Shown piece after piece: positions 1 to 13,721 of a stretch of 13,721 nt of DNA (position 1 is its first letter; the number at the start of each line of letters is the position of its first letter). Origin of the DNA: a virus; UHGV virus genome UHGV-0121712; one strand, given 5' to 3'. A model generated the notes under the pieces. The model saw only the letters and a list, made by a program, of their open reading frames with translations, did not search any database and was not told the origin of the DNA. The position numbers and the translations under genes are program-made.

Positions 1-660
1 CGATAATTCCAAGCATCATAATAACCCTGACCCTATCCAGCAATTATGTTTGGAAAAAGAAAGTGGGTTATCACCGTCGTTCAGTGGCAGAAACGGCGAT
101 GGTCAAAGCGCTAAACCAGATGACCGTGCTGGGTATGCCGGACAGCGTCCGCATCGCATAACGGGTGTTCCGGTAGGCGTCATCCTGTCTACTAACTCGG
201 GTTTATTCAATAAACTCCATAAAATTATTATGGTTACAGCCAATCTCGGGCAATGCACGTTGGAGTTGTTAGCATTTTTCTCCAAAGAAGGTATATTAAA
301 ACAGCATGATTAACCATTGTTCAACAAGGCTTGGCCAACCATTAAACTCCACCGTTCTGCTATCATTAATAATGTGCGTGATAGTATCGGAAACTCTATA
401 TGAAGCATAGCAACCACCATCATCAATCGATAGCTATTACCCTGTCTATTTTTCTGATTTCATCAGAATGCCCCCGTGGTATGTGATACAATGTTAAAAT
501 CTTCTTAACACCAATACGCCCTCAAGGAGTAATTGATTGAATTTATTACCTTTATTAGCAAATCTCACTTCAACTAATTTAAGCTCCGTTGTTTTAACTT
601 CGATTCCAGAAGGCATTGCTTTACTACACTCTTAACACTATCATTGCTCGCTATTTTGAA

Positions 661-1866
661 ATGATGAGGTTCAATAAATTGGAACAAAAAAAGAACAGAA
701 TCCTTTATTTTGATGGGTTACGCGGACTAATGGCTATAATTGTTGCTTATGGTCATTTTTTTGGTGAAACAAAGCTTTTTATGCTTTCACACTACCCAGA
801 GGCATTCCCTTATTGGCTTTCAAAATTCTACGAATTTACTGAAACGACACCATTCGTATTCACTATCAATGGTAATTTTGCTACTATAGTTTTTTTCATC
901 TTATCTGGCGCAATTCTTCTTGGCGCCTTCAAAGCAAATACAACATTTATAGCATCATTAATACGTCGTTTTATTCGACTTGGTGTTCCTGTATTTGCTT
1001 CCTGTATTATTGGATATATCTTAGTAAAATCTGGATTTCGTTATGATCACGATGAAAATGTAGCTTTCGATGAAGTAATAAAGCAAGGCATTCTTACGCT
1101 ATATACCACAGATTTTTCAACTAGATTTCTTAACCCTGTAATATGGTCAATGTCGACTGAGTTTATGGGCTCGCTGTTACTATTAATTGTTGTTCAGGTA
1201 GGAAGAAATAATTCAAGGCATGGCATTCTTTTATTATTTTTATTTACTATCTTTAGTTACGGATATTATGTGTTTTTTCTTCTCATTGGCGCATGGATAT
1301 CCATCTTGTTTGCCGACGAAAAAACAAGCAATTTATTTAACAACAAAGAAAAACACGTTATTACTTTGCTAATGATATTAGCTATAGTGATACTTCAAAG
1401 TTGCCCGGCATTCTATCCCTGGGGTTGGATTTTTATACCAGGGAACTATTTTGTTGCCCCATTAATAAACATGCAAGACTTATCGATTCCTGGGATGTTC
1501 CCTTACCACCCATACGAGTTTTTACGTGGTGTCGGTGCAATATTATTGCTAATTCTAGTAATATCCAGAGGATACATTCGCGATTTCCTATCCACTAAAC
1601 TTGTTCAATTTTTTGGGAAAATTTCTTTCTCTTTATACCTTGTTCACTGGTTAGTTCTTTCATCTGCAATAATGCCAATAAACCTATATGTATATATTCA
1701 TACAAATAACGTTTATTTAGCATACATTGCTTCCTTTTTAGTATTCGTCACTCTTTCTTTAATTGGTTCAATGATATTTTATCAATTAATAGAGAAAAAA
1801 TCAGTGATACTTAGCCGTACCGTAGGAAAAACCCTAGATAATTTTATCAGTAAAGCAAAAATATAA
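661..1866 (+). CDS. Integral-membrane acyltransferase, acyltransferase family 3 (OafA/Oac-like); likely O-acetylase of a surface polysaccharide
   Basis: 401-aa ORF from the first ATG (listed ORF starts at an upstream TTG at 616). N-terminal RILYFDGLRGLMAIIVAYGHF motif typical of acyltransferase family 3, many hydrophobic segments, strongly AT-rich codon usage unlike neighbouring genes, followed by an intrinsic terminator. Confidence 0.8.
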   Translation: MMRFNKLEQKKNRILYFDGLRGLMAIIVAYGHFFGETKLFMLSHYPEAFPYWLSKFYEFTETTPFVFTINGNFATIVFFILSGAILLGAFKANTTFIASLIRRFIRLGVPVFASCIIGYILVKSGFRYDHDENVAFDEVIKQGILTLYTTDFSTRFLNPVIWSMSTEFMGSLLLLIVVQVGRNNSRHGILLLFLFTIFSYGYYVFFLLIGAWISILFADEKTSNLFNNKEKHVITLLMILAIVILQSCPAFYPWGWIFIPGNYFVAPLINMQDLSIPGMFPYHPYEFLRGVGAILLLILVISRGYIRDFLSTKLVQFFGKISFSLYLVHWLVLSSAIMPINLYVYIHTNNVYLAYIASFLVFVTLSLIGSMIFYQLIEKKSVILSRTVGKTLDNFISKAKI

Positions 1867-1874
1867 CCACACAA

Positions 1875-1900
1875 GGCTCCCTAAAAAGGGAGCCTTTTTT
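1875..1900 (+). terminator. Rho-independent terminator of the acyltransferase gene
   Basis: GGCTCCC / TAAAAA loop / GGGAGCC followed by TTTTTT, 8 nt after the stop codon. Confidence 0.75.
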
Positions 1901-2084
1901 ATAATGGTTGATTATCGATTGGGTGATCTGGATGTAATTTTCAATCTGTTTTCGCCATCCTCAATACAGTTAAAAATAAGTACTGTAAACCAAAATACTG
2001 GATATAAAAAACAGGAATGCTGGTTGCTAAAAACTTATCTAGAAAAATTATCCGCCAGTTCTCACCTAGCGACTTATTATCCAA

Positions 2085-2252
2085 TCAACCTACGGCATGC
2101 TGAGGGAATTGCTTCCAAAAGTTTGTCAATCTCTCATCAGATTCATCAACTTCCCCCAAAAACTGGTAGTAATCCGGGTCTGCCGGGGATGCAAAAACAG
2201 AGACAATTTCTGTTTCTTTCTCATCAGAGAACTGCACATATACTGTTGACAT
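2085..2252 (-). CDS. Small protein at the tail-fibre assembly chaperone (gpG) position, possibly a truncated remnant
   Basis: Short ORF directly downstream of the tail-fibre gene. Coordinates use the internal Met (MSTVYVQF...); the listed ORF extends to 2327 but then overlaps the fibre gene by 58 nt. Much shorter than typical chaperones. Position-based call only. Confidence 0.3.
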   Translation of the reverse strand: MSTVYVQFSDEKETEIVSVFASPADPDYYQFLGEVDESDERLTNFWKQFPQHAVG

Positions 2253-2269
2253 TAATACCCCCCATGCCC

Positions 2270-3424
2270 CTAAATGGTATAACCATTGATACCAATGGTT
2301 GCCGTTGAAACTGCAGGTGTTGTCCATGAGAATTGGTAATAGATATTCTGGACAACAGGTAGTTGCATTTCGAAGTAGATATCGGTGCCAATGGCACCTG
2401 TTGTTCCGGCATAAGCCTGGAAGAAACCAACTCCGTTGCTATCTGATGCCATTACTAGCGTGGCCGCCCCGGCTCCGGCTCCTGAATTACAGAATGCATA
2501 ACCTGAGCATGATATGGCATTCTGCGGAACTGCTGCGCTCAATCCTATTGGGGCATATCCACCTGGGTTGCTGCTTGTGTTCAGCACGTCCACGCGCGGG
2601 ATGCAAAATTTTCGACCTCGCTGGTACCCATTCAGAAGCAAAGAGCCGCTTGTTGTTCTCCAGACGGATACGAGTGCGCTCGCCGTATATCCCGCTGGCA
2701 TGTTTGCACCGCCGTAGACTGTGGGCGCAACGACGGTTGTCGTGTTAACACCAAGTAATGCTGAGGTGTTGGTCGTTGGGTTGTAAATAAGGTAAATAGC
2801 AACCCAACCACTGGCAGGGGCTGCTCCTGTATCCATCCCGCCCGCCCCAGTCGTGGTGAGGTTGATAGTTTCGCTTACCGAACTTACACGGTACTGCTTG
2901 CCAGATAATGACTCACCAACAATAACCTGGTCAGCGGTGAATGTTGCTGATGCCGACGCTATTGCCACGCTCATTTTCTGGTTAACAGCCTGACCAACCA
3001 CGCCGGTGAATGATTCTCGCATCTTGAGGTAATCACTTAGCGGCGACCACCCAGCTGAAGAAGTATTAGGGTCGTTTGTGTTGTTGTTGATAGTGCTGAT
3101 ATAAATCGTTGCGCCGTCATCACTGATGAGAACAGCTCCAAGAGGATACCCTCCAACCGCCGTTGAAAAATCTGAGTCAAAAGCATTAAGAGCGCCTGCG
3201 CTAGACCATCTGCAAAGGGAAGACAACTCATACAAGATTTGATTCATGTCCTGCCCTTTGGGAGGAAGGCCCCCGGCAGATTTCAAAATCATTGTTATTG
3301 GTGGGAATCCTAAATCGTAGGATGCTGTATTATCTCCAGCTGGAGTTGTCGGCAGAAGATCCTCTCTTTGACCATTTACTCCAAAAGGTTTTGGTTGTTT
3401 TTTGGGTGAGTCAGAGCGATTCAT
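2270..3424 (-). CDS. Tail fibre protein (P2 gpH position)
   Basis: 384-aa ORF starting 2 nt after the upstream gene. N-terminal region (GFPPITMILKSAGGLPPKGQDMNQILYELS...) resembles tail-fibre N-terminal anchor domains as I recall them; C-terminal half is Gly/Ala/Thr/Ser/Asn-rich like receptor-binding fibre tips. Confidence 0.7.
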   Translation of the reverse strand: MNRSDSPKKQPKPFGVNGQREDLLPTTPAGDNTASYDLGFPPITMILKSAGGLPPKGQDMNQILYELSSLCRWSSAGALNAFDSDFSTAVGGYPLGAVLISDDGATIYISTINNNTNDPNTSSAGWSPLSDYLKMRESFTGVVGQAVNQKMSVAIASASATFTADQVIVGESLSGKQYRVSSVSETINLTTTGAGGMDTGAAPASGWVAIYLIYNPTTNTSALLGVNTTTVVAPTVYGGANMPAGYTASALVSVWRTTSGSLLLNGYQRGRKFCIPRVDVLNTSSNPGGYAPIGLSAAVPQNAISCSGYAFCNSGAGAGAATLVMASDSNGVGFFQAYAGTTGAIGTDIYFEMQLPVVQNIYYQFSWTTPAVSTATIGINGYTI

Positions 3425-3426
3425 AC

Positions 3427-4065
3427 TTAATTCCTATAAAATGTGCCATCATTAAACGGGTAGGCGTCAGATGAAAAACCGAAATAAGGACTAATAATTT
3501 TTCGAATATTTACCTGAACACCACTAGGAACTGACATTACTTCATAATTTGTGAGAATAGATTCCTCGTATGGTGCAAGTTCAAACTCGAATGTTATTCC
3601 AATGGTCATATCTCGATAATTCACACAGTATGCCCTTCCTCTTTGAAAAAATAATATCTTTAAAAACTTGTTGATTTCTGGAATCGTAGCAATACTTATG
3701 TTCGTAAACGCTTTGCAAAATATGAGTGTTCTGTAAGCCTCGTCACTCAATCTAACATTTGTTGTCTCCTGTGCTCCTCCAAAAAAAGGAGAGTTGTTGA
3801 ACGGAGCGGGGTAATTTGGTTCTGCATTATCAGCTTCACTGAATCCGAAGGAATTGGTCTCTATAGGTGAGTTAATATAGCGACTTATCCCTACTATTTT
3901 CCCCCACATATCCAGGCCGAATGTATCACAGGTAGTCAAATCCCATACTTTTTTAATAAACTCATCAGTGAAATCATCAAGGCTAATTGCCTGATTAAAG
4001 GTATCAATGATGGATAGTAATTTTTTGCTTGCAGAGTACTGGGTAAGAATTGTGTCCTCCCACAT
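3427..4065 (-). CDS. Baseplate / tail-fibre-proximal protein (P2 gpI position)
   Basis: 212-aa ORF between the J-like gene and the fibre gene; RBS-like GGGGGA upstream. Assignment by synteny, not clear sequence recognition. Confidence 0.55.
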   Translation of the reverse strand: MWEDTILTQYSASKKLLSIIDTFNQAISLDDFTDEFIKKVWDLTTCDTFGLDMWGKIVGISRYINSPIETNSFGFSEADNAEPNYPAPFNNSPFFGGAQETTNVRLSDEAYRTLIFCKAFTNISIATIPEINKFLKILFFQRGRAYCVNYRDMTIGITFEFELAPYEESILTNYEVMSVPSGVQVNIRKIISPYFGFSSDAYPFNDGTFYRN

Positions 4066-4075
4066 ACATTTCCCC

Positions 4076-5305
4076 CTACGATAATGTAACAGTGATATCT
4101 GATTCCTGAATGGTTGGAACCTGGTCTATGCCCATAGTCACAGCCGGTCCGTATAGTGAACCATCGAGAGAAACTTCAAGAGACAAAATTCCAACTGTAT
4201 CAGGAGATATTGAAATAACAGGGGCATAGTATTTACCAGCATTTATCGTCGAACCAATTCGTGCCTTTCCAATACCCTCATATCCTCCATTGAACACAGT
4301 GACAATCATTTCCTTTACTTGTTTAGTAATATCACTTGGGGGATTTAGTGAAGCATCGACATTTACCTTAAAGTAAACCCGCGTAGGTGATGCCTTTTGC
4401 CATTGCATTACATAAGATGGATATGGCGGCATGTAATTAACGTTATCGTAAACAGTGAACGTTGTATTACCATTCATATTGGCCCCGGGGTTATAAGTAT
4501 TGAATATTGACTCAGCAACATCCGTATCAGCCCCGCCATAAACACAAATATAAACAGAATGCGCAAGAATCGGGAAATTCGTTGTTCCTTTATTTACTGT
4601 TTCTGCAGTTCTGTTTGACCATACGTAAGCATCAAGCACACCATCAGTCGCAAGTAACGCGGCTAATGTAGATGCGTCCTGATTTCGACTGTTTCTGGCA
4701 ACTGATTGTCTCCGGCGAGTTTCAAAGGCGATCCGTGATTCAACATCAACACCAACGACTCCAGGGCTAGTATTATTTACAGCATCCCACCCGGAAACGG
4801 CTCGATAAATCTGGTTCAGTGAACCTGCGGCACACGGAATCGGCCCGGTTGTTGTGTTGACAAACTGCACATCAACAGAGCCTGATGAGGGTATTACAGC
4901 ATTATCAATTGACTGATATATATACCCGCTCGTATCCACAGCGGTACTCCCTGCTGGTATTGTTGTTCCAACCTGACCAATGCATGTTGCTGTAACAACT
5001 GTCCCCTGAGCAGCGATCCGCTCCATAAAGTAAATCCGACCAATCCCGTCCTGGAATCTGCCGGTTGAAAAGTCAGGGTTAATTTGATTAAACAAACAAA
5101 GAAGCTTGTCGTATTCCTGAGCGATAATTTCAGTGTCAGACTGGGCGATCTGCCCTTGCGGTGAACTCAGTGACTGACTTGCGCCACCGCCAAGGGCCGT
5201 TGACATGTCTGTAAGTCTTCCCGCCAATACATCTGCTATATCGGGGACTGAAAGACCGTTTTCAGTGATGGTTACATCAGGAACAGCCGTATTTAATGTC
5301 GTCAT
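4076..5305 (-). CDS. Baseplate J-like protein (P2 gpJ / T4 gp6 position)
   Basis: 409-aa ORF; ATG overlaps the stop of the upstream gene (ATGA); size and position consistent with the baseplate J family. Confidence 0.65.
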   Translation of the reverse strand: MTTLNTAVPDVTITENGLSVPDIADVLAGRLTDMSTALGGGASQSLSSPQGQIAQSDTEIIAQEYDKLLCLFNQINPDFSTGRFQDGIGRIYFMERIAAQGTVVTATCIGQVGTTIPAGSTAVDTSGYIYQSIDNAVIPSSGSVDVQFVNTTTGPIPCAAGSLNQIYRAVSGWDAVNNTSPGVVGVDVESRIAFETRRRQSVARNSRNQDASTLAALLATDGVLDAYVWSNRTAETVNKGTTNFPILAHSVYICVYGGADTDVAESIFNTYNPGANMNGNTTFTVYDNVNYMPPYPSYVMQWQKASPTRVYFKVNVDASLNPPSDITKQVKEMIVTVFNGGYEGIGKARIGSTINAGKYYAPVISISPDTVGILSLEVSLDGSLYGPAVTMGIDQVPTIQESDITVTLS

Positions 5306-5661
5306 AAGGTGGCCTGTGCAATATTACCATTGATATCTGTAACGCGGATTGTCCCGCGAGTTGTGCGTGTATTCTTGTCAAAGAAAACTGACGCCAGAGC
5401 ATCCTCAACAACGGGTAATTTGAGTGCTTCAGCCTGCATTTTCTGAGCAATAAAACCAGGAGATGGTCGCCTGCCAAGAACTTCTGCCTTCCATGGGATC
5501 CCAAGTGTATTGTCGTAATAACACTCTCCTGAAAACACCAGGCATGCACTGGCGACATCCTGAGCAACAGAATATGATTCTTCTGCGATCGCCAGATTGC
5601 CATTTCCGTCAAGCGTCAAGTCCCACGTAGAAGTGTCCAGCTGCATAGTTCTGTATGTCAT
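5302..5661 (-). CDS. Small baseplate wedge protein (P2 gpW / gp25 position)
   Basis: 119-aa ORF, ATGA-coupled on both sides, between the spike and J-like genes. Confidence 0.55.
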   Translation of the reverse strand: MTYRTMQLDTSTWDLTLDGNGNLAIAEESYSVAQDVASACLVFSGECYYDNTLGIPWKAEVLGRRPSPGFIAQKMQAEALKLPVVEDALASVFFDKNTRTTRGTIRVTDINGNIAQATL

Positions 5662-6350
5662 GTCGGTTTATCCGTTGCATTGGAATTTATTGTTGACCCA
5701 CCACTTTGTATTCCTGAAACAGAATGTTTGTGATTGTTATAGTTGTCCCTTAAATTTTTAACAGTAGATGACTGTGAGTCTGCGTTATCCTGAATATTGC
5801 CACTAACTTTAAGTAAAGGCGTATTCATGTTGACTCCATCAGGAGCATCAATATTTAACGATGAGCATTTGATATTTAGTGGGTTAGGCGTGGTTATATT
5901 TATTGCACCGTCAGCGAATTCAATGAATTGAGTAGGTGAAATGTTTAATACCCCACCAAGATAAATCGCATCCGATTTACTGTGTCGTCTTTTGCTTCCA
6001 GGTACTGATTCTTTACGATTTTTTCTTACCAGTGATGTGTCTTTGTCGCATACCGCAATCAGACCAATATCACCTGCCACAGGGTCCATAATTACAGCGC
6101 TGTTTCCTCTCTGCAACCGCCATACGGGAAGATCATATAAAACCGAGTTGGAAATCATTTTTCCTGTACGGTCTGTTCTGGTTAGTAAAGGAAGAACATC
6201 AACAACTAAATCTGGTGCTTCCCCTCTGACTTCCTGAACTTTCGCTAACTCAATGAAGAAATATCCAGACATCAGCATCTCAAAAATATATTCCTGAGAT
6301 TGAGCCTCACTTACCTGAGCAGGCGTTGGAGTAAATAGTTGCTTATCCAT
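5658..6350 (-). CDS. Baseplate spike protein, gpV-like
   Basis: 230 aa from the internal Met MDKQLF... (listed ORF starts at an earlier Met inside the upstream gene). C-terminal NHKHSVSGIQSGGS resembles the P2 gpV apex motif (HTHKHPGDSGG) as I recall it. Start overlaps the upstream stop by 8 nt. Confidence 0.7.
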   Translation of the reverse strand: MDKQLFTPTPAQVSEAQSQEYIFEMLMSGYFFIELAKVQEVRGEAPDLVVDVLPLLTRTDRTGKMISNSVLYDLPVWRLQRGNSAVIMDPVAGDIGLIAVCDKDTSLVRKNRKESVPGSKRRHSKSDAIYLGGVLNISPTQFIEFADGAINITTPNPLNIKCSSLNIDAPDGVNMNTPLLKVSGNIQDNADSQSSTVKNLRDNYNNHKHSVSGIQSGGSTINSNATDKPT

Positions 6351-7332
6351 TATTCTGTTGCGCCTCTGCTCTTTGTTCCGCTGTTCTGGCGGCAATACAT
6401 ATTGAGTGCCATGAACCATTTGGCATCCATGATGATAATTCATGCCGAACGGAGGTTAACTTATACCTTCCGCTTGCATGTGGTAGTTCTGTTTTGATAT
6501 CCACATATCTTCCAATGCAAAGGAGAGATGAATATTGCGTCTGAAACATCAGCCCCCCATTTGAAAATACAGGATATCCAACAAGTCCGTATTCTCTGGA
6601 TATAAACGGAATTACATCATCTCTGTTTTTTTCTGAAGGCCAGAACTCTACTTTTGCAGGTGGCGTAGCTGACATTGCCAGTCCATAATCTGAACAGACT
6701 CTATAAAGTTGCTCAAAAACACTTCCTTCAAAATGCGGACTTCCTGATGTTGTCATCCCTTTTACATTATTAAACACAGCTTCATAACCTGCACTTGCAC
6801 AAATGGATGAGATGACATCTTCAACACTTTGCGCCCCCTGTGCTGTAAACGGGCTTGCTGGCATGTTCTGCAAATCAACATTAGAAGAAGCTGTTATCAT
6901 CAGGCTGCTTTCAGGAGCAGAATTCATGTTTGCTATTGATGAAAGCATCGTGCCAGAGAAAACAAGAGAATCATCGGCAAATACTTCAACATTTAGCTTC
7001 TGCCCTTCTCCAATAATACCATCAGCCTTCCCTGATATATCAGCAAGCCTTTCAATTCCTAACCCGTAAAGAGATATATCAGCCTGAGCGCCTCCCCGAC
7101 CGGTAACAAAGTTCAGGGATACTGTTGACTTAACATTTCTGATGGAGATTTTATTGTTCCCATTTTTATCAAATGCTGATGATTCATTCGTGAAGTCAAA
7201 CCGAAGACTGTGATTTTTATACAAGCTCGTTTTCCTCGATGTAGTACAGCAAGTAACGGCTACCCAAGCCTTCCCATTGCGGATCCGATTCCCCATCATT
7301 ATCAATGAAAATAAGGTCTCCCTTAAATCCAA
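6343..7332 (-). CDS. Tail or baseplate structural protein, possibly a hub component; true start uncertain
   Basis: 329-aa ORF in the coupled structural operon; its 5' end overlaps the upstream ORF by 116 nt in another frame. Confidence 0.45.
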   Translation of the reverse strand: MDLRETLFSLIMMGNRIRNGKAWVAVTCCTTSRKTSLYKNHSLRFDFTNESSAFDKNGNNKISIRNVKSTVSLNFVTGRGGAQADISLYGLGIERLADISGKADGIIGEGQKLNVEVFADDSLVFSGTMLSSIANMNSAPESSLMITASSNVDLQNMPASPFTAQGAQSVEDVISSICASAGYEAVFNNVKGMTTSGSPHFEGSVFEQLYRVCSDYGLAMSATPPAKVEFWPSEKNRDDVIPFISREYGLVGYPVFSNGGLMFQTQYSSLLCIGRYVDIKTELPHASGRYKLTSVRHELSSWMPNGSWHSICIAARTAEQRAEAQQNNG

Positions 7333-7519
7333 GGTAGGAATATCTTACCATCTTATTCCCATACAGACATGGAACGCCCTGCATAATTGGGACTTCATTA
7401 ACAGTTAAATCCATGTACATAAAACTCTGTCGCTGAACAAGTTTTATATTACATTGCTGACCAGACAGACTTACCGAAATGGACTGAGATTTGCTGGGAA
7501 GAACAGATACTGTAATCAT
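7217..7519 (-). CDS. Small structural-operon protein, or 5' part of a frameshifted gene continuing into 6343..7332
   Basis: 100-aa ORF whose ATG overlaps the upstream stop (ATGA). Confidence 0.4.
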   Translation of the reverse strand: MITVSVLPSKSQSISVSLSGQQCNIKLVQRQSFMYMDLTVNEVPIMQGVPCLYGNKMVRYSYLGFKGDLIFIDNDGESDPQWEGLGSRYLLYYIEENELV

Positions 7520-8331
7520 GTACTCGCCTTAACTATATTTTTTGCAATATCTGCCGCTTTTTTTGTTGCGCTGTTTGTGACTTCGAGTATTGGTTTGGAT
7601 ACCGTATCAAGAGCACTCTGGAATTCAGTCTTGATTGTGTCGGAGATTTTTCCAGTGATTTCGCCAACAGATGACTTCAGTGATGACCATGATTTACTTA
7701 GCTCATCGACAGTAGATTCCCTGGCTCCGCCATTGGTTATTTGCGGATCAACTCCTACACCTCCCTGTGACTTATTGTTATCCGTTGGCTTCTGTTCTGA
7801 CTGAGATCCAGAGAGGATAACCTCCATTTGCTGAATGACCTCCTGAAAATCAAGATAAACCGTCAGAAGAGTCACCCCTTTTTGAGAGTTAACTTCGTAA
7901 TAGTGGTCAACAAGGTCGAAACTCTCCAGAGTTTCCTTTGGCGTTTCAATATCGTATGTTTTTGCAGAGGACAGCATCATTTTGATTGTGTTCAGCGTGC
8001 TGTTCTGGCTTGTGAATGTGAGATCGAAAATATTCGGGATGTTGCCGGAAAAACCAGTAAGACCATTTACGATGATTGCGCATCTTACCCTGGCGGGTTC
8101 TTTAACTTTGTTGATGGACTGGTATTTCCCTTTCTCCACCGGAGCGTTTGTTATTTGCGCCCTGCCACTTGGCTGCACGGATGCCATACCACTGAACTCA
8201 AGAGCAACCTCGCCAGTTTCCCTGTCACGAATCACATACTGAGGATGCAGAACGCTGTCGATGATCGAAAGCGGAGAGCCACCACCGATAGCATTGAATA
8301 TGTCTGCTGTGTTTAAATCGATTATGCCCAT
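7516..8331 (-). CDS. First gene of the structural operon, function unknown
   Basis: 271-aa ORF with GGAGAG RBS immediately after the upstream terminator; C-terminal region rich in Ser/Thr/Lys with coiled-coil character; ATGA-coupled to the next gene. Confidence 0.5.
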   Translation of the reverse strand: MGIIDLNTADIFNAIGGGSPLSIIDSVLHPQYVIRDRETGEVALEFSGMASVQPSGRAQITNAPVEKGKYQSINKVKEPARVRCAIIVNGLTGFSGNIPNIFDLTFTSQNSTLNTIKMMLSSAKTYDIETPKETLESFDLVDHYYEVNSQKGVTLLTVYLDFQEVIQQMEVILSGSQSEQKPTDNNKSQGGVGVDPQITNGGARESTVDELSKSWSSLKSSVGEITGKISDTIKTEFQSALDTVSKPILEVTNSATKKAADIAKNIVKAST

Positions 8332-8342
8332 CTACTCTCCAT

Positions 8343-8369
8343 TAAACAAAAACCCAGCCGAAGCTGGGT
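8343..8369 (-). terminator. Rho-independent terminator after the antirepressor gene
   Basis: On the minus strand: ACCCAGC / TTCG loop / GCTGGGT followed by TTTTTGTTT, between the ant stop (8388) and the next start (8331). Confidence 0.75.
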
Positions 8370-8387
8370 CGTTGCGTTGGTTATCTG

Positions 8388-9266
8388 TCAGTAGTTATGT
8401 ACTGAAGGAGGTAATTCTTTATTCTTAAGTCTCATCCATGCGGAAAGATTCGTTGGTCCGTCTGGCTCATTGATATCAACATCTCGTGTGTGATTGATTA
8501 AAACGTCTCTCGCTATATCGATAATACGGGAGAACTCATAACCGCAGTCATGACATCTGCCGGAATAGTTCGATTGAATTTGTTTTAATGCCGGATACAG
8601 TTCGCGGAATAATGCCTGTGAACGGTTGGCATAATCCCATAACCATACAAGGCTGTTTGCTTCTTTTGCAGAAATCTCGTTGGTTTTCTTCTCTTGTTTG
8701 CCGATGAACTCACCTTCAAGCACTACCCTGTGGATGTACTCTACGGCCAGCGGGATTTGTTCAATTGAAAGTTCATCAATGCTGTCAATACCAAAACGCT
8801 GATGAACCATATTGTATGCATCGTCATAGCGAAGTCCTTTCTTTCCTACCAGCATGTTTACTGCATCGCGTAGCGGTGTTCTTTCCTCAACAGTGGTTTT
8901 CTTTCCTTTTACATACTCGCCATGTTTGCGAATTGAAGGCAGAACTTCTGCTGTTACCCACTTGCGGAATTTGTGTGGGACTGAACCTTTATTGACTGCA
9001 TCGCGGCAGCGCAGAACCAATGTATACATACCTGATTCGCTCACAATGCTTAGATTCTGCTCACCACCAAGGGTGTAACTTAAAGTTACTCCCTTTTCAT
9101 CGTCATCAAGTGCAGTAAGCGCCTTGCGTGAGTTAGTCAAAGCTAAAGCATCACAAACATCTTTAGCTACAAACCACGGCTCGCCGCACTTGTTAATGAC
9201 GCGAATTTCACTGTCGCCAAATTTGAAGATGGTGAAATCGTTTTGTGCCTTTGCTATACTTTTCAT
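8388..9266 (-). CDS. Antirepressor-like protein with N-terminal Bro-N domain
   Basis: 292-aa ORF. N-terminus ([14 protein letters not shown]...[16 protein letters not shown]) is a Bro-N-type motif; sits directly downstream of an Arc-like gene, as ant does in the P22 immI region. Confidence 0.7.
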
Positions 9267-9337
9267 GTCAATATTTCCCGATCAGATTTGTTGATGTAGA
9301 AGCCTCGCCAGTTCCCGCTGTCGGGGCTTCGTTATTT

Positions 9338-9484
9338 TTAGAGAGCATTCCGCATTTTCTCCCGGTACTTCAACCACCAAGCAAGTCCCTGAACCAACAC
9401 TGAGTTTTCTGACATCCCCTCTTCCTTGGCGATGCGTTTCACCTCCTCCTTAAAACGGTACGGATACCGATAACCGCGAGGCAT
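9338..9484 (-). CDS. Arc-family ribbon-helix-helix repressor
   Basis: 48-aa ORF (not in the six-frame track; decoded codon by codon): MPRGYRYPYRFKEEVKRIAKEEGMSENSVLVQGLAWWLKYREKMRNAL. Aligns in pattern with P22 Arc (PQFNLRWPREVLDLVRKVAEENGRSVNSEIYQRV): beta-strand, helix A, G-x-S-x-N-S turn, helix B. Weak RBS. Confidence 0.55.
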   Translation of the reverse strand: MPRGYRYPYRFKEEVKRIAKEEGMSENSVLVQGLAWWLKYREKMRNAL

Positions 9485-9591
9485 CGACTAATCTCGTTAG
9501 CAACGCGCATGAAACCATCTTCGGTATCTGCCACGCGATGCTCCACGACCTCCAGTTGAGGCCTGTAATCAGCTAACTTAACGACGCCCAT
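9439..9591 (-). pseudogene. Truncated N-terminal remnant of an O-like replication initiator
   Basis: ATG with strong AGGAG RBS. First ~34 codons (KLADYRPQLEVVEHRVADTEDGFMRVANEI) align with the lambda O N-terminus (KILNFGRGNFAGQERNVADLDDGYARLSNML) as I recall it; the frame then runs out of register into the arc gene and stops. No rest of O and no P follow. Confidence 0.4.
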
Positions 9592-9739
9592 GTTTCACTC
9601 CTGCTTTGGCTAGTCTGTAAACACCAACAAGGCGCTCTGCGAACGCCCTGTTATTTGCTGCGGCTACCACTAATCCCTCAGGTGAATCAGGGTGTCGAAT
9701 CTCTTCTTTTTCCTGGTATTTCTTACGACGTTTTGTCAT
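9578..9739 (-). CDS. Small basic protein between cII and the O remnant
   Basis: 53-aa ORF (MTKRRKKYQEKEEIRHPDSPEGL...) with RBS context ATCCACAGGAGTAATTATGAC, which I recall as the lambda O initiation region; its stop overlaps the start of the O remnant. Confidence 0.35.
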   Translation of the reverse strand: MTKRRKKYQEKEEIRHPDSPEGLVVAAANNRAFAERLVGVYRLAKAGVKHGRR

Positions 9740-9773
9740 AATTACTCCTGTGGATTGATCCAGTCTTTCTACA

Positions 9774-10052
9774 TCAGGCCTCGAAGAATTCGCCGTTCTT
9801 CGGGGCTTTTTCTTTTGTCAGCATTCTGGCTACTTTCTTAGCCAGTTCCGCCAACTCCTCGTCTTCAACACCCCATTCAAGAACAGCCAGAAGCATTCCC
9901 ATTTTGGGGATGAAGCTATCTTTCCATCGCGAAATTTGCGATTCATTAATCCCTAACGCGTCGGCAACCTTTCGCTGACCACGTACAGCAATTCGATTCA
10001 GGATGTTGCTTGTAATTGCATTCGCTTTCTTGCGAGTACTTGTAAGTTGCAT
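9774..10052 (-). CDS. cII: CII-type lysogeny activator (non-lambda allele)
   Basis: 92 aa from Met MQLTSTRKK...; conserved SQISRWK and MLLAVLEWGV motifs shared with lambda CII; upstream leader AAGGAAATACTTACATATG is lambda-like. Confidence 0.85.
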   Translation of the reverse strand: MQLTSTRKKANAITSNILNRIAVRGQRKVADALGINESQISRWKDSFIPKMGMLLAVLEWGVEDEELAELAKKVARMLTKEKAPKNGEFFEA

Positions 10053-10131
10053 ATGTAAGTATTTCCTTAGATAACAATTGATTGAATGTATGCAAATAAA
10101 TGCATACACCATAGGTGTGGTTTAATTTGAT

Positions 10132-10163
10132 GCCCTTTTTCAGGGCTGGGATGTGTAAGAGCG
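10132..10163 (-). promoter_or_regulatory. nutR (boxA CGCTCTTAC and boxB GCCCTGAAAAAGGGC on the minus strand)
   Basis: Reverse complement of 10155-10163 is the boxA consensus; 10132-10146 is the boxB hairpin; located between cro and cII as in lambda. Confidence 0.7.
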
Positions 10164-10171
10164 GGAATGTC

Positions 10172-11524
<1,353 letters not shown>

Positions 11525-11574
11525 TCCCCACCTCGATTTCGATAACCAAAAAACAAACTATTTTCCGTTTAAAA

Positions 11575-11647
11575 ACAATGGAGTTTGTTTTTCACGCCCC
11601 TTTTTACAATATTTATTGTTTACAACATACAATCTTTCTTGTAATTT
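11575..11647 (+). promoter_or_regulatory. 434-type left operator (three sites) with candidate PL promoter
   Basis: ACAA-N6-TTGT sites at 11575-11588, 11606-11619 and 11629-11642; candidate -35 TTTACA (11619-11624) and -10 TAATTT (11642-11647), 17-bp spacer, reading toward N. Confidence 0.8.
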
Positions 11648-11688
11648 TAAGCCATCAGCAGGACGCACTAACCACCATTGAAGGTGAG

Positions 11689-11718
11689 GCTCTTAAAAAT
11701 TTAGCCCTGAAGAAGGGC
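11689..11718 (+). promoter_or_regulatory. nutL (boxA GCTCTTAA, boxB GCCCTGAAGAAGGGC)
   Basis: boxA-like at 11689-11696; boxB hairpin at 11704-11718 matches the lambda nutL boxB as I recall it; lies between PL and N. Confidence 0.8.
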
Positions 11719-11986
11719 AGCATTCAAAGCAGAAAGCTTTGGGGTGTGGTGAAGCCAGCTAGTCACTGGTAAGTGCTTACCTACTGTTGAGCGGTGAAGC
11801 GCTCCCAACGCTAGCAATAGCGTGGACGAGATGGGGAGCCGCGGGCGATAAGGCCGCCATAACGCGCACGTTGTCGCATGGAAAAATCGCTGGGGTGCCG
11901 GTTATACCCCTCCGAATGAGACTCAACAAGCTGGAGCTAGACTACCAGCCACCACACCACCAAAGCTAACTGACAGGAGAATCCAG

Positions 11987-12121
11987 ATGGATGCACAAAC
12001 ACGCCGCCGCGAACGTCGCGCAGAGAAACAGGCTCAATGGAAAGCAGCAAATCCCCTGTTGGTTGGGGTAAGCGCAAAACCAGTTAAAGGTATTCGCGAT
12101 AAAGGTAAATATCGGCAATAA
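11987..12121 (+). pseudogene. N: Truncated antiterminator N (first ~33 codons lambda-like, then unrelated tail and stop)
   Basis: MDAQTRRRERRAEKQAQWKAANPLLVGVSAKPV matches the lambda N arginine-rich boxB-binding N-terminus; it continues KGIRDKGKYRQ-stop instead of NRPILSLNRKPK..., giving 44 aa versus 107 in lambda N. Confidence 0.8.
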
Positions 12122-12197
12122 ATAACAATCCTCGCACTCGCGGGGATTTCTTTTATCTGAACTCGCTACGGCGGGTTTTGTTTTATGGAGATGATAA

Positions 12198-12365
12198 ATG
12201 CACTTCCGAGTCACAGGTGAATGGAATGGAGAACCATTCAACAGAGTTATCGAAGCAGAGAACATCAACGACTGCTATGACCACTGGATGCTGTGGGCGC
12301 AGATAGCACATGCAGACGTAACCAATATTCGAATTGAAGAACTGAAAGAACACCAAGCCGCCTGA
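12198..12365 (+). CDS. Small hypothetical protein immediately upstream of xis (55 aa)
   Basis: ATG to TGA ORF (MHFRVTGEWNGEPFNRVIEAENINDCYDHWMLWAQIAHADVTNIRIEELKEHQAA) ending 39 nt before xis; I believe lambda has a 55-aa ORF at this position, from memory. Confidence 0.55.
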   Translation: MHFRVTGEWNGEPFNRVIEAENINDCYDHWMLWAQIAHADVTNIRIEELKEHQAA

Positions 12366-12380
12366 TGGCGGTTTTTTCTT
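12357..12380 (+). terminator. Candidate intrinsic terminator between the small ORF and xis
   Basis: GCCGCC / TGAT loop / GGCGGT followed by TTTTTTCTT, overlapping the end of the 55-aa ORF. Confidence 0.45.
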
Positions 12381-12404
12381 GCGTGTAATTGCGGAGACTT
12401 TGCG

Positions 12405-12623
12405 ATGTACTTGACACTTCAGGAGTGGAACGCTCGCCAGCGACGCCCAAGAAGCCTTGAAACAGTTCGTCGATGGGTACGCGAGTGCAGGATATTCCCT
12501 CCTCCGGTTAAGGATGGAAGAGAGTATCTGTTCCACGAATCAGCGGTAAAGGTTGACTTAAATCGACCAGTAACAGGTAGCCTTTTGAAGAGGATCAGAA
12601 ATGGGAAGAAGGCGAAGTCATGA
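12405..12623 (+). CDS. xis: Excisionase, lambda Xis
   Basis: 72-aa product MYLTLQEWNARQRRPRSLETVRRWVRECRIFPPPVKDGREYLFHESAVKVDLNRPVTGSLLKRIRNGKKAKS matches lambda Xis as I recall it; its 3' end overlaps int by 23 nt as in lambda. Confidence 0.95.
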   Translation: MYLTLQEWNARQRRPRSLETVRRWVRECRIFPPPVKDGREYLFHESAVKVDLNRPVTGSLLKRIRNGKKAKS

Positions 12624-13671
12624 GCGCCGGGATTTACCCCCTAACCTTTATATAAGAAACAATGGATATTACTGCTACAGGGACCCAAGGACGGGTAAAG
12701 AGTTTGGATTAGGCCGAGACAGGCGAATCGCAATCACTGAAGCTATACAGGCCAACATTGAGTTATTTTCAGGACACAAACACAAGCCTCTGACAGCGAG
12801 AATCAACAGTGATAATTCCGTTACGTTACATTCATGGCTTGATCGCTACGAAAAAATCCTGGCCAGCAGAGGAATCAAGCAGAAGACACTCATAAATTAC
12901 ATGAGCAAAATTAAAGCAATAAGGAGGGGTCTGCCTGATGCTCCACTTGAAGACATCACCACAAAAGAAATTGCGGCAATGCTCAATGGATACATAGACG
13001 AGGGCAAGGCGGCATCAGCCAAGTTAATCAGATCAACACTGAGCGATGCATTCCGAGAGGCTATAGCTGAAGGCCATATAACAACAAACCCGGTCGCAGC
13101 CACTCGCGCTGCAAAATCAGAGGTAAGGAGATCAAGACTTACGGCTGACGAATACCTGAAAATTTATCAAGCAGCAGAATCATCACCATGTTGGCTTAGA
13201 CTTGCAATGGAACTGGCTGTTGTTACCGGGCAGCGAGTTGGTGATTTATGCGAAATGAAGTGGTCTGATATCGTAGATGGATATCTTTATGTCGAGCAAA
13301 GCAAAACAGGCGTAAAAATTGCCATCCCAACAACATTGCATGTTGATGCTCTCGGGATATCAATGAAGGAAACACTTGATAAATGCAAAAAGATTCTTGG
13401 CGGAGAAACCATAATTGCATCTACTCGTCGTGAACCGCTTTCATCCGGCACAGTATCAAGGTATTTTATGCGCGCACGAAAAGCATCAGGTCTCTCCTTC
13501 GAAGGGGATCCGCCTACCTTTCACGAGTTGCGCAGTTTGTCTGCAAGACTCTATGAGAAGCAGATAAGCGATAAGTTTGCTCAACATCTTCTCGGGCATA
13601 AGTCGGACACCATGGCATCACAGTATCGTGATGACAGAGGCAGGGAGTGGGACAAAATTGAAATCAAATAA
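12601..13671 (+). CDS. int: Tyrosine integrase, lambda Int
   Basis: 356-aa product beginning MGRRRSHERRDLPPNLYIRNNGYYCYRDPRTGKEFGLGRDRR and ending ...DDRGREWDKIEIK, matching lambda Int as I recall it, including the catalytic-region HELRSLSARLY and HLLGHKSDTMASQY motifs. Confidence 0.97.
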   Translation: MGRRRSHERRDLPPNLYIRNNGYYCYRDPRTGKEFGLGRDRRIAITEAIQANIELFSGHKHKPLTARINSDNSVTLHSWLDRYEKILASRGIKQKTLINYMSKIKAIRRGLPDAPLEDITTKEIAAMLNGYIDEGKAASAKLIRSTLSDAFREAIAEGHITTNPVAATRAAKSEVRRSRLTADEYLKIYQAAESSPCWLRLAMELAVVTGQRVGDLCEMKWSDIVDGYLYVEQSKTGVKIAIPTTLHVDALGISMKETLDKCKKILGGETIIASTRREPLSSGTVSRYFMRARKASGLSFEGDPPTFHELRSLSARLYEKQISDKFAQHLLGHKSDTMASQYRDDRGREWDKIEIK

Positions 13672-13721
13672 TGATTTTATTTTGACTGATAGTGACCTGT
13701 TCGTTGCAACAAATTGATAAG
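13668..13721. other. attP P' arm (partial): three Int arm-type binding sites; core lies beyond the window end
   Basis: The 3' terminal sequence is the reverse complement of the lambda P' arm as I recall it; arm-type sites ATAATGATTT (13668-13677), ATTTTGACTG (13679-13688) and ATAGTGACCT (13689-13698) correspond to P'3, P'2, P'1. The window stops about 20 bp short of the core. Confidence 0.85.

Follow-up and report, generated by a model that had tools for sequence, protein, structure and literature searches.

Does the AT-rich acyltransferase gene beside the tail genes of the virus genome UHGV-0121712 alter the surface of the bacterial host, and if so, which glycan would its product act on and where did the gene come from? 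An earlier note on this 13,721-nucleotide stretch of DNA (hereafter the window, meaning the whole stretch analysed) had seen in the gene an O-antigen acetylase moron of a temperate phage. We assign a probability of roughly 60% to a more specific answer, namely that the product, an integral-membrane protein consisting only of an acyltransferase-3 (AT3) domain, modifies the polysaccharide specified by a Wzm/Wzt (ABC-transporter) cluster between galF and gnd of the host, and that the gene is a relocated acetyltransferase gene of such a cluster, now carried by a prophage as a moron. This answer is drawn from sequence comparison and genomic context.

The family assignment made from the letters alone was borne out. 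The protein matched the profile PF01757 (Acyl_transf_3) with an E value of 5.7e-21 and 75.4 bits against a cutoff of 31 bits, over profile positions 2-325 of 326, and its best PHROG was phrog_3333, 'O-acetyltransferase'. The motifs defined for AT3 proteins, R/K-X10-H in transmembrane helix 1 (TMH1), an FFXISG-type motif, and RXXR (PMC7448272), were all present: the first as LRGLMAIIVAYGH (R15...H26 in the numbering of the 395-aa protein), the second as FFILSG at residues 72-77, and the third within RRFIR, with R97 and R100. The histidine, FF..SG, and R..R were unchanged in alignments that included Sf6 Oac, and the set of motifs that did not vary across distant AT3s comprised R-X10-H, FFxxSG, RxxR, WSxxxE, and SxSLYLxH. 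Hydropathy and an AlphaFold model (AF2; pLDDT 79, pTM 0.81, all-helical) pointed to about 10 transmembrane helices without an additional domain, consistent with the AT3/TmAT fold. The chain stops ~30 residues past helix 10, no second Pfam domain was found, and positions 1-2600 of the window contain no separate SGNH gene. A sequence search of the PDB gave no match, a Foldseek search of the PDB with the model returned nothing significant, and at E ≤ 0.01 NCBIfam held no family for this protein, nor for the neighbouring 55-aa protein or tail fibre described below. We presume that the NCBIfam library includes models for enterobacterial common antigen (ECA; WecH) and osmoregulated periplasmic glucans (OPG; OpgC/MdoC). 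When the gene was compared with a copy found in P2-like prophages, dN/dS was 0.07 at a dS of 0.72, and the open reading frame (ORF) was intact in every copy seen. By these comparisons, the product of positions 679-1866 is an AT3-only enzyme under purifying selection, and it is likely functional.

The ORF lies on the + strand, with possible starts at 616, 661, and 679 and its end at 1866. The stretch marked in the earlier note began at 661, where there is an ATG. We consider the TTG at 679 most likely to be the true start, because the P2-like copy (84% identity) has an ATG at exactly this position, the Shine-Dalgarno sequence GAGG (666-669) ahead of it is conserved, and the ATG equivalent to 661 is out of frame in that copy. 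Gene callers also assigned 395 aa to the protein. Upstream, a promoter-like pair is formed by TTGCTT (616-621) and TATCAT (639-644) with a spacer of 17 nt; in the alignment with the P2-like copy, both hexamers and the Shine-Dalgarno sequence are invariant, and the site is predicted at the level of consensus. An alternative extended -10 promoter at 483-491 was dropped for lack of conservation in the P2-like copy. Downstream of the gene, a hairpin at 1873-1896 with a 10-bp stem (six G-C pairs) and a 4-nt loop is followed by TTTTTT. Its folding energy was -17.9 kcal/mol (z = -5.1), none of 200 shuffled sequences was as stable, and Rfam gave only sub-threshold matches in window 1-2600, located over this terminator. 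No RfaH ops/JUMPstart element (GGCGGTAG) was found near the gene, and no GATC, as in a Dam/OxyR phase-variation signature, was found between 300 and 760. The window as a whole contains 24 GATC sites in 13.7 kb, compared with ~54 expected from its length alone.

The coding sequence has a GC content of 33.2% (27.8% at third codon positions), compared with 44.5% in window 2270-13721, where the lowest value among 206 segments of the same length (1188 nt) was 38.5%. Because the gene is on the + strand and the tail genes are all on the - strand (the 55-aa ORF at 2085-2252, the fibre gene at 2270-3424, a DUF2612 gene at 3427-4065, the baseplate J gene at 4076-5305, and further baseplate genes beyond), it converges on the tail operon. 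The AT-richness relative to the phage neighbours, the convergent orientation, and the gene's own terminator had all been noted from the letters and were reproduced here; direct adjacency to the tail-fibre gene was not, since the conserved 55-aa ORF lies between the two.

The promoter-like region, the gene, and the terminator form a unit (445-1906) that recurs at 84% identity in P2-like prophages of E. coli, with unchanged boundaries and a location between the tail-fibre genes and the sheath gene. A larger stretch, window 1-3021, has a counterpart with 94.6% identity in the enterotoxigenic E. coli (ETEC) strain 720632, where it belongs to a Mu/e14-like remnant prophage at argW. Two IMG/VR contigs also carry its equivalent, and in one further deleted version the unit is fused directly to an integrase. 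A megablast search of window 400-2300 against phages gave no match. The baseplate lineage of the window is represented at full length by a sibling prophage in E. coli FDAARGOS_1288, in which the slot beyond the fibre and chaperone genes is occupied by gtrA-gtrB-gtrC. In phage Sf6, the order is tailspike, terminator, oac, promoter, and integrase, likewise with a convergent arrangement, and Pantoea phage PA-1 has a 26%-identical AT3 after its tail spike. Because of the recurrence in P2-like prophages, the gtrABC genes in the sibling slot, and the arrangement in Sf6 and PA-1, we regard the unit as a mobile add-on in a standard slot for receptor-modifying genes. The hallmarks of a phage moron were found in deviant GC content, a terminator, a recurring unit, and gtrABC in the sibling, the promoter being only consensus-like. 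The description of the gene as a horizontally acquired, self-contained moron therefore stands.

Where such a gene could have originated is suggested by its closest relatives, which numbered seven among 5.8 billion proteins. The four that are not from phages (P0003-P0006, from Pantoea stewartii and Enterobacterales) share 55-61% identity with the window protein, and all four are encoded in one conserved Wzm/Wzt cluster. Its first half encodes a 262-aa protein, a 124-aa HAD-like protein, a 513-aa nucleotidyltransferase/kinase, a 234-aa protein, Wzm, and Wzt; these are followed by a GT2, WavE, the AT3, a ~600-aa protein, and a ~346-aa protein, which places the AT3 between WavE and the ~600-aa gene. 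In P. stewartii, the cluster adjoins gnd. No relative was found in GTDB species-representative genomes scanned with family-specific peptides, and a tblastn search of 50,697 phage genomes at E ≤ 1e-5 returned only Pantoea phage PA-1, at 26%.

Among 5,426 complete E. coli genomes, ETEC 720632 was the sole carrier of the phage AT3. This strain is ONT:H21, ST1564, and O-non-typeable (PMC6446980, supplementary tables). Between galF and gnd it has the Wzm/Wzt cluster without an AT3 between WavE and the 595-aa gene, and the GC content of this cluster, 33.0%, is the same as that of the phage gene. A galF-gnd cluster of this type was present in only two complete E. coli genomes, 720632 and ES1. The AT3 was also found in SRR15128260, together with a Wzm/Wzt cluster 99.8% identical to that of 720632; the sixA-fadL flanks of these two strains are only 96.7% identical, and SRR15128260 lacks yfdF. 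The window's own contig shares an 8.9-kb chromosomal flank with 720632 at 99.8% identity, so the host of the window prophage probably has the same galF-gnd cluster. Because of the in-cluster homologues and the co-occurrence in 720632 and SRR15128260, the galF-gnd Wzm/Wzt polysaccharide is the best-supported candidate substrate, and a cluster AT3 gene, copied and relocated, is the probable origin of the phage gene. The surface-polysaccharide modification proposed earlier thus gained support from context: homologues lie in Wzm/Wzt clusters, and the two E. coli strains with the gene have the cluster minus its AT3.

Other features of these regions were also recorded. In the galF-his region of 720632 (locus L026, 1-3600 and 17248-47300), the colanic-acid locus is destroyed (wzc is frameshifted, wcaK is a fragment, and galF has an internal stop). 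In the same region, gnd and his are separated by ~30 kb of IS elements, and wzzB is interrupted. In other E. coli assemblies (loci L047-L063), a related Wzm/Wzt variant, with a 124-aa protein that is 85-86% identical, adjoins yegH, the usual start of the colanic-acid locus. In L047, an in-cluster AT3 of another kind is located ~10 kb downstream.

In the mechanism that we propose, with its steps modelled on the AT3 family, the ~10-helix protein would take up an acyl group; the most likely one is acetyl, with cytoplasmic acetyl-CoA as the donor. The group would be passed through the inner membrane and, on reaching the periplasm, joined as an ester to a hydroxyl on a sugar of a surface polysaccharide, with the Arg-X10-His pair of TMH1 and the RXXR arginines as the likely working residues. 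The substrate would be the polysaccharide of the rare Wzm/Wzt cluster at the galF-gnd O-antigen locus of the host, and the gene would have been captured as a copy of the acetyltransferase gene found inside related clusters. A lysogen would then display an altered O-antigen epitope and show reduced adsorption of phages that use this polysaccharide, probably including those with the fibre tip that travels with the gene. The acyl donor, the acceptor sugar, the expression in the lysogen, and the effects on phages and serotype are what we infer in this scheme.

Several points weigh against this proposal. The substrate and the donor rest on synteny and on co-occurrence in effectively two strains, and the co-occurrence count leaves out the hosts of the P2-like copy. 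ES1 has the cluster and no AT3, so the modification would be dispensable. No experimentally characterised O-antigen acetylase reaches 30% identity to the protein. The gene is located within a heavily deleted prophage, its expression is a prediction, and a generic promoter scan did not report the pair at 616-644. Lastly, one cluster gene is named 'capsular biosynthesis protein' by NCBI, so the polymer could be capsule-like and not a lipid-A-core-linked O-antigen.

Among the alternatives, the one that survives best is an active enzyme that works on another envelope glycan (ECA, the lipopolysaccharide core, colanic acid, OPG, or peptidoglycan), with the cluster co-occurrence reflecting lineage hitch-hiking; we consider this unlikely. 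The known substrates of AT3-only proteins are indeed diverse (review PMC9558356), and a co-occurrence based on two strains, with the hosts of the P2-like copy outside it, leaves some room for such an explanation. It fits poorly with the finding that every close non-phage homologue lies in one Wzm/Wzt cluster type and never elsewhere, and with a base composition equal to that of the cluster. In addition, the slot is that of gtrABC and oac, the two co-occurring strains are 3.3% apart in the chromosomal flank, and the lack of an NCBIfam match leaves the protein unassigned to a named family such as those of the WecH or OpgC models.

An enzyme whose donor acyl group is not acetyl, for example succinyl as in OpgC or a longer chain, would have a different physico-chemical outcome. 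Non-acetyl transferases do occur in the AT3 family (PMC9558356), the structural neighbour GWT1 uses long-chain acyl-CoA, and the sequence holds nothing that identifies the donor. We nevertheless regard this version as improbable: the phage-borne and O-antigen-cluster AT3-only enzymes characterised in the same review are all acetyltransferases, and the best fold match, HGSNAT (with a Foldseek E value that was not significant), uses acetyl-CoA. Least credible is a silent relic, an intact-looking ORF neither expressed nor needed in a decaying prophage: the prophage has lost much (the antirepressor gene abuts the immunity region, and head, sheath, and tube genes are missing), a piece of an IS5 element precedes the unit, and the near-identical argW copies give dN/dS values of 0.36 and 1.15 on 9 and 5 changes, too few to detect selection, but the low dN/dS against the more distant P2-like copy, the intact ORF in all copies, the conserved promoter-like site, Shine-Dalgarno sequence, and terminator, and the survival of the AT3 end through three different replacements or deletions of the remaining argW prophage all speak for a maintained gene.

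The tail fibre has 384 aa, with a PHROG domain boundary at residue ~135. Its N-terminal part differs between the window, the 720632 remnant, and the P2-like prophages; homology to the sibling prophage of FDAARGOS_1288 (locus L017) begins at window 3144, and the DUF2612 product is a wedge protein. The distal ~250 fibre residues, the 55-aa gene, and the AT3 move together among three tail architectures. Homologous tips with small proteins were also found in phages of Burkholderia, Ralstonia, Yersinia, and Pseudomonas, including some without an AT3. Of the 12 phages or phage groups with such tips that were examined, an AT3 follows directly downstream in five and a GDSL esterase alone in one; a further one shows a possible AT3 remnant, and neither is present in the other five. 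Because the 55-aa protein follows the tip even without an AT3, it belongs to the fibre module, and a function in fibre assembly, or as an accessory factor of the fibre, is probable. A role for this ORF as a partner of the acyltransferase was rejected, as it follows the same tip in Orisa03 and PPpW-3, which have no AT3. We also rejected one ancient fibre-tip/AT3 cassette shared with the Burkholderia phages, whose AT3s belong to other subfamilies. Because those AT3s span at least three other subfamilies, the pattern indicates recurrent acquisition in one slot and not a single inherited cassette.

A tentative extension of these results is that the acetyltransferase gene was captured from an O-antigen cluster and now forms, with the fibre tip and its small chaperone, a portable 'recognise-and-mask' cassette (block 445-3021), in which the tip would target the polysaccharide that the enzyme modifies, and of which the host would have kept the enzyme end at argW as a domesticated gene during replacement or decay of the remaining prophage. 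Equally tentative is the circulation that such a cassette would entail, which would span three or more unrelated types of tail (P2-like, Mu/e14-like, and DUF2612-type).

Sequence differences from 720632 were concentrated in window 2179-2678 (the 55-aa gene and the last ~135 fibre residues), which contained 129 of 177, compared with nine in the AT3 and 16 in the 8.9-kb chromosomal flank. This distribution points to a recombination patch or a diversifying receptor-binding tip. Raharianne gp50 (locus L020, 4001-4486) has 161 aa, with the 55-aa family at its N-terminus and DUF4376 at its C-terminus, which hints that the small protein is a trimmed form of a larger fibre-associated protein. In Burkholderia phage vB_E159 (locus L032, 4309-4503), a 65-aa ORF after the fibre gene gave a weak match to the AT3 profile (E 8e-4) and may be the remnant of a lost acyltransferase.

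The state of the prophage was examined at both ends. The ENA assembly contig ERZ651857 NODE_18 is identical to the window and places the AT3 ~1 kb from an argW fragment, a 23-nt 5′ piece of this tRNA-Arg gene located beside yfdC, 367 nt to the left of window position 1 (locus L027, 8956-8978). In 720632, the intact argW (locus L012, 22527-22601) is at the opposite end of the remnant prophage, beside the integrase gene, and the element seems to contribute the 5′ part of the tRNA, where the 3′ part would be usual. At the other end, homology to the full-length sibling stops at 9470, just past the antirepressor gene. Beyond this point are cII, cro, a cI-like repressor gene (10491-11123), xis, and a lambda-type integrase gene (12601-13671), which stands at the far end, the other end of the element being at argW. 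No head, sheath, tube, or replication genes were found in the prophage (junction region examined, 8388-13721). Judged by its gene content, the prophage is heavily deleted.

Table 1. Features at the acyltransferase end of the window (positions are those of the window).
Feature	Position	Strand	Remarks
IS5/IS1182-family transposase gene fragment	39..161	+	between the argW' junction and the acyltransferase unit; equivalent stretch of 720632 annotated by RefSeq as an incomplete transposase
Upstream part of the mobile unit	445..678	+	P2-like homology begins at ~445; contains the promoter-like pair and the Shine-Dalgarno sequence
Acyltransferase gene	679..1866	+	predicted AT3-only integral-membrane O-acyltransferase, 395 aa; TTG start, TAA stop
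Intrinsic terminator of the acyltransferase gene	1873..1902	+	hairpin, then T-run
55-aa protein	2085..2252	-	phrog_20339; homologues directly after homologous fibre tips
Distal tail fibre, C-terminal ~250 aa	2270..3021	-	shared with the 720632 remnant (94.6%, within 1-3021) and P2-like prophages (74%)
Proximal tail fibre, N-terminal	3022..3424	-	DUF2612/baseplate-J lineage; phrog_12796, residues 1-148

The acyltransferase gene fits the established logic of serotype-converting morons, and this general picture is unchanged by our results. What they contribute is a specific substrate hypothesis and an apparent case of capture from a polysaccharide cluster by a phage. Phage-borne O-antigen modification genes alter serotype, vaccine epitopes, and phage susceptibility, and the present AT3 subfamily, which is unstudied, occurs in an O-non-typeable ETEC lineage and in human-gut metagenome assemblies. 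Strains 720632 (cluster and AT3) and ES1 (cluster only) form a natural plus/minus pair. The system could serve as a simple model of an AT3-only enzyme acting on a polysaccharide made by the ABC-transporter route, and it could show how genes of O-antigen clusters find their way onto phages.

Comparison with known systems places the gene among functional and positional counterparts from which its product is distant in sequence. The protein is, like Sf6 Oac (OacA), an AT3-only membrane O-acetyltransferase candidate of a temperate phage, and it shares with Oac the catalytic histidine, FFxxSG, and RxxR. Both genes converge on a receptor-binding tail gene with a terminator between them, both lie at the attachment-site end of the prophage, and Sf6-type phages integrate at argW, as does the window element. 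The proteins differ in length (395 aa versus 333 aa in Oac) and share only 23% identity, over 192 N-terminal residues (pairwise E 2e-5); the presumed substrate here is a Wzm/Wzt polymer, whereas Oac acts on the Wzx/Wzy O-antigen of S. flexneri. From these alignments, the window protein is not an orthologue of Oac or OacB-D. The sequence comparison with Oac and OafA that the earlier note had suggested thus revealed neither full-length similarity to Sf6 Oac nor an SGNH domain: the Oac-like character held at the level of superfamily and genomic role, and orthology did not.

The in-cluster AT3s (P0003-P0006) have the same length, motifs, and low GC content as the window gene, and their 55-61% identity is full-length; on this evidence, the AT3s of Wzm/Wzt clusters are its true family. 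They differ in being chromosomal, whereas the phage gene is located on a prophage, 360 kb from the equivalent cluster. The gtrABC genes of the FDAARGOS_1288 sibling are found at precisely this position, between the fibre and chaperone genes on one side and the attachment site on the other, on the opposite strand, and their presumed role of modifying a receptor polysaccharide is the same. They form the classical cassette for O-antigen glucosylation known from temperate enterobacterial phages and comprise three genes acting via undecaprenyl-phosphate-glucose, where the window has a single acyltransferase; as a further difference, no GATC/OxyR-type phase-variation signature is present upstream of the window gene.

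In BcepMu (gp53), the Burkholderia phages vB_E433, PE067, and vB_PL1, and Yersinia phage YeP1, an AT3 comes right after a homologous tip and a likewise homologous ~60-aa protein, mostly in convergent orientation. These AT3s share 22-28% identity with the window protein (E 0.015 to 3.3) and belong to other subfamilies. PE067 and vB_PL1 have an additional, separate GDSL/SGNH protein that the window lacks; it is encoded after the AT3 (locus L023, 5504-6241, and locus L024, 5510-6109, respectively), forming a split AT3 and SGNH pair, and carries the name 'major pilin protein FimA' in the annotation of PE067. In Ralstonia phage Raharianne, the slot holds only a GDSL esterase gene (locus L020, 4488-5294).

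The Salmonella proteins OafA and OafB share the AT3 domain, R/K-X10-H, and RXXR with the window protein. OafB is prophage-borne and protects against its carrier phage (PMC7448272, PMC9558356). Both possess an 11th helix and, fused to the AT3 part, a periplasmic SGNH domain for the final transfer, whereas the window protein ends after helix 10 and, by its domain content, is not an AT3-SGNH fusion of the OafA/OafB type. The solved transmembrane acyl-CoA transferases human HGSNAT and yeast GWT1 are eukaryotic, act on other acceptors, and show 12-14% identity; no relation was detectable at the sequence level, and the Foldseek E values were not significant. In function and position, the window gene would group with Sf6 oac, BcepMu gp53, OafB, and the gtr cassettes as one kind of element.

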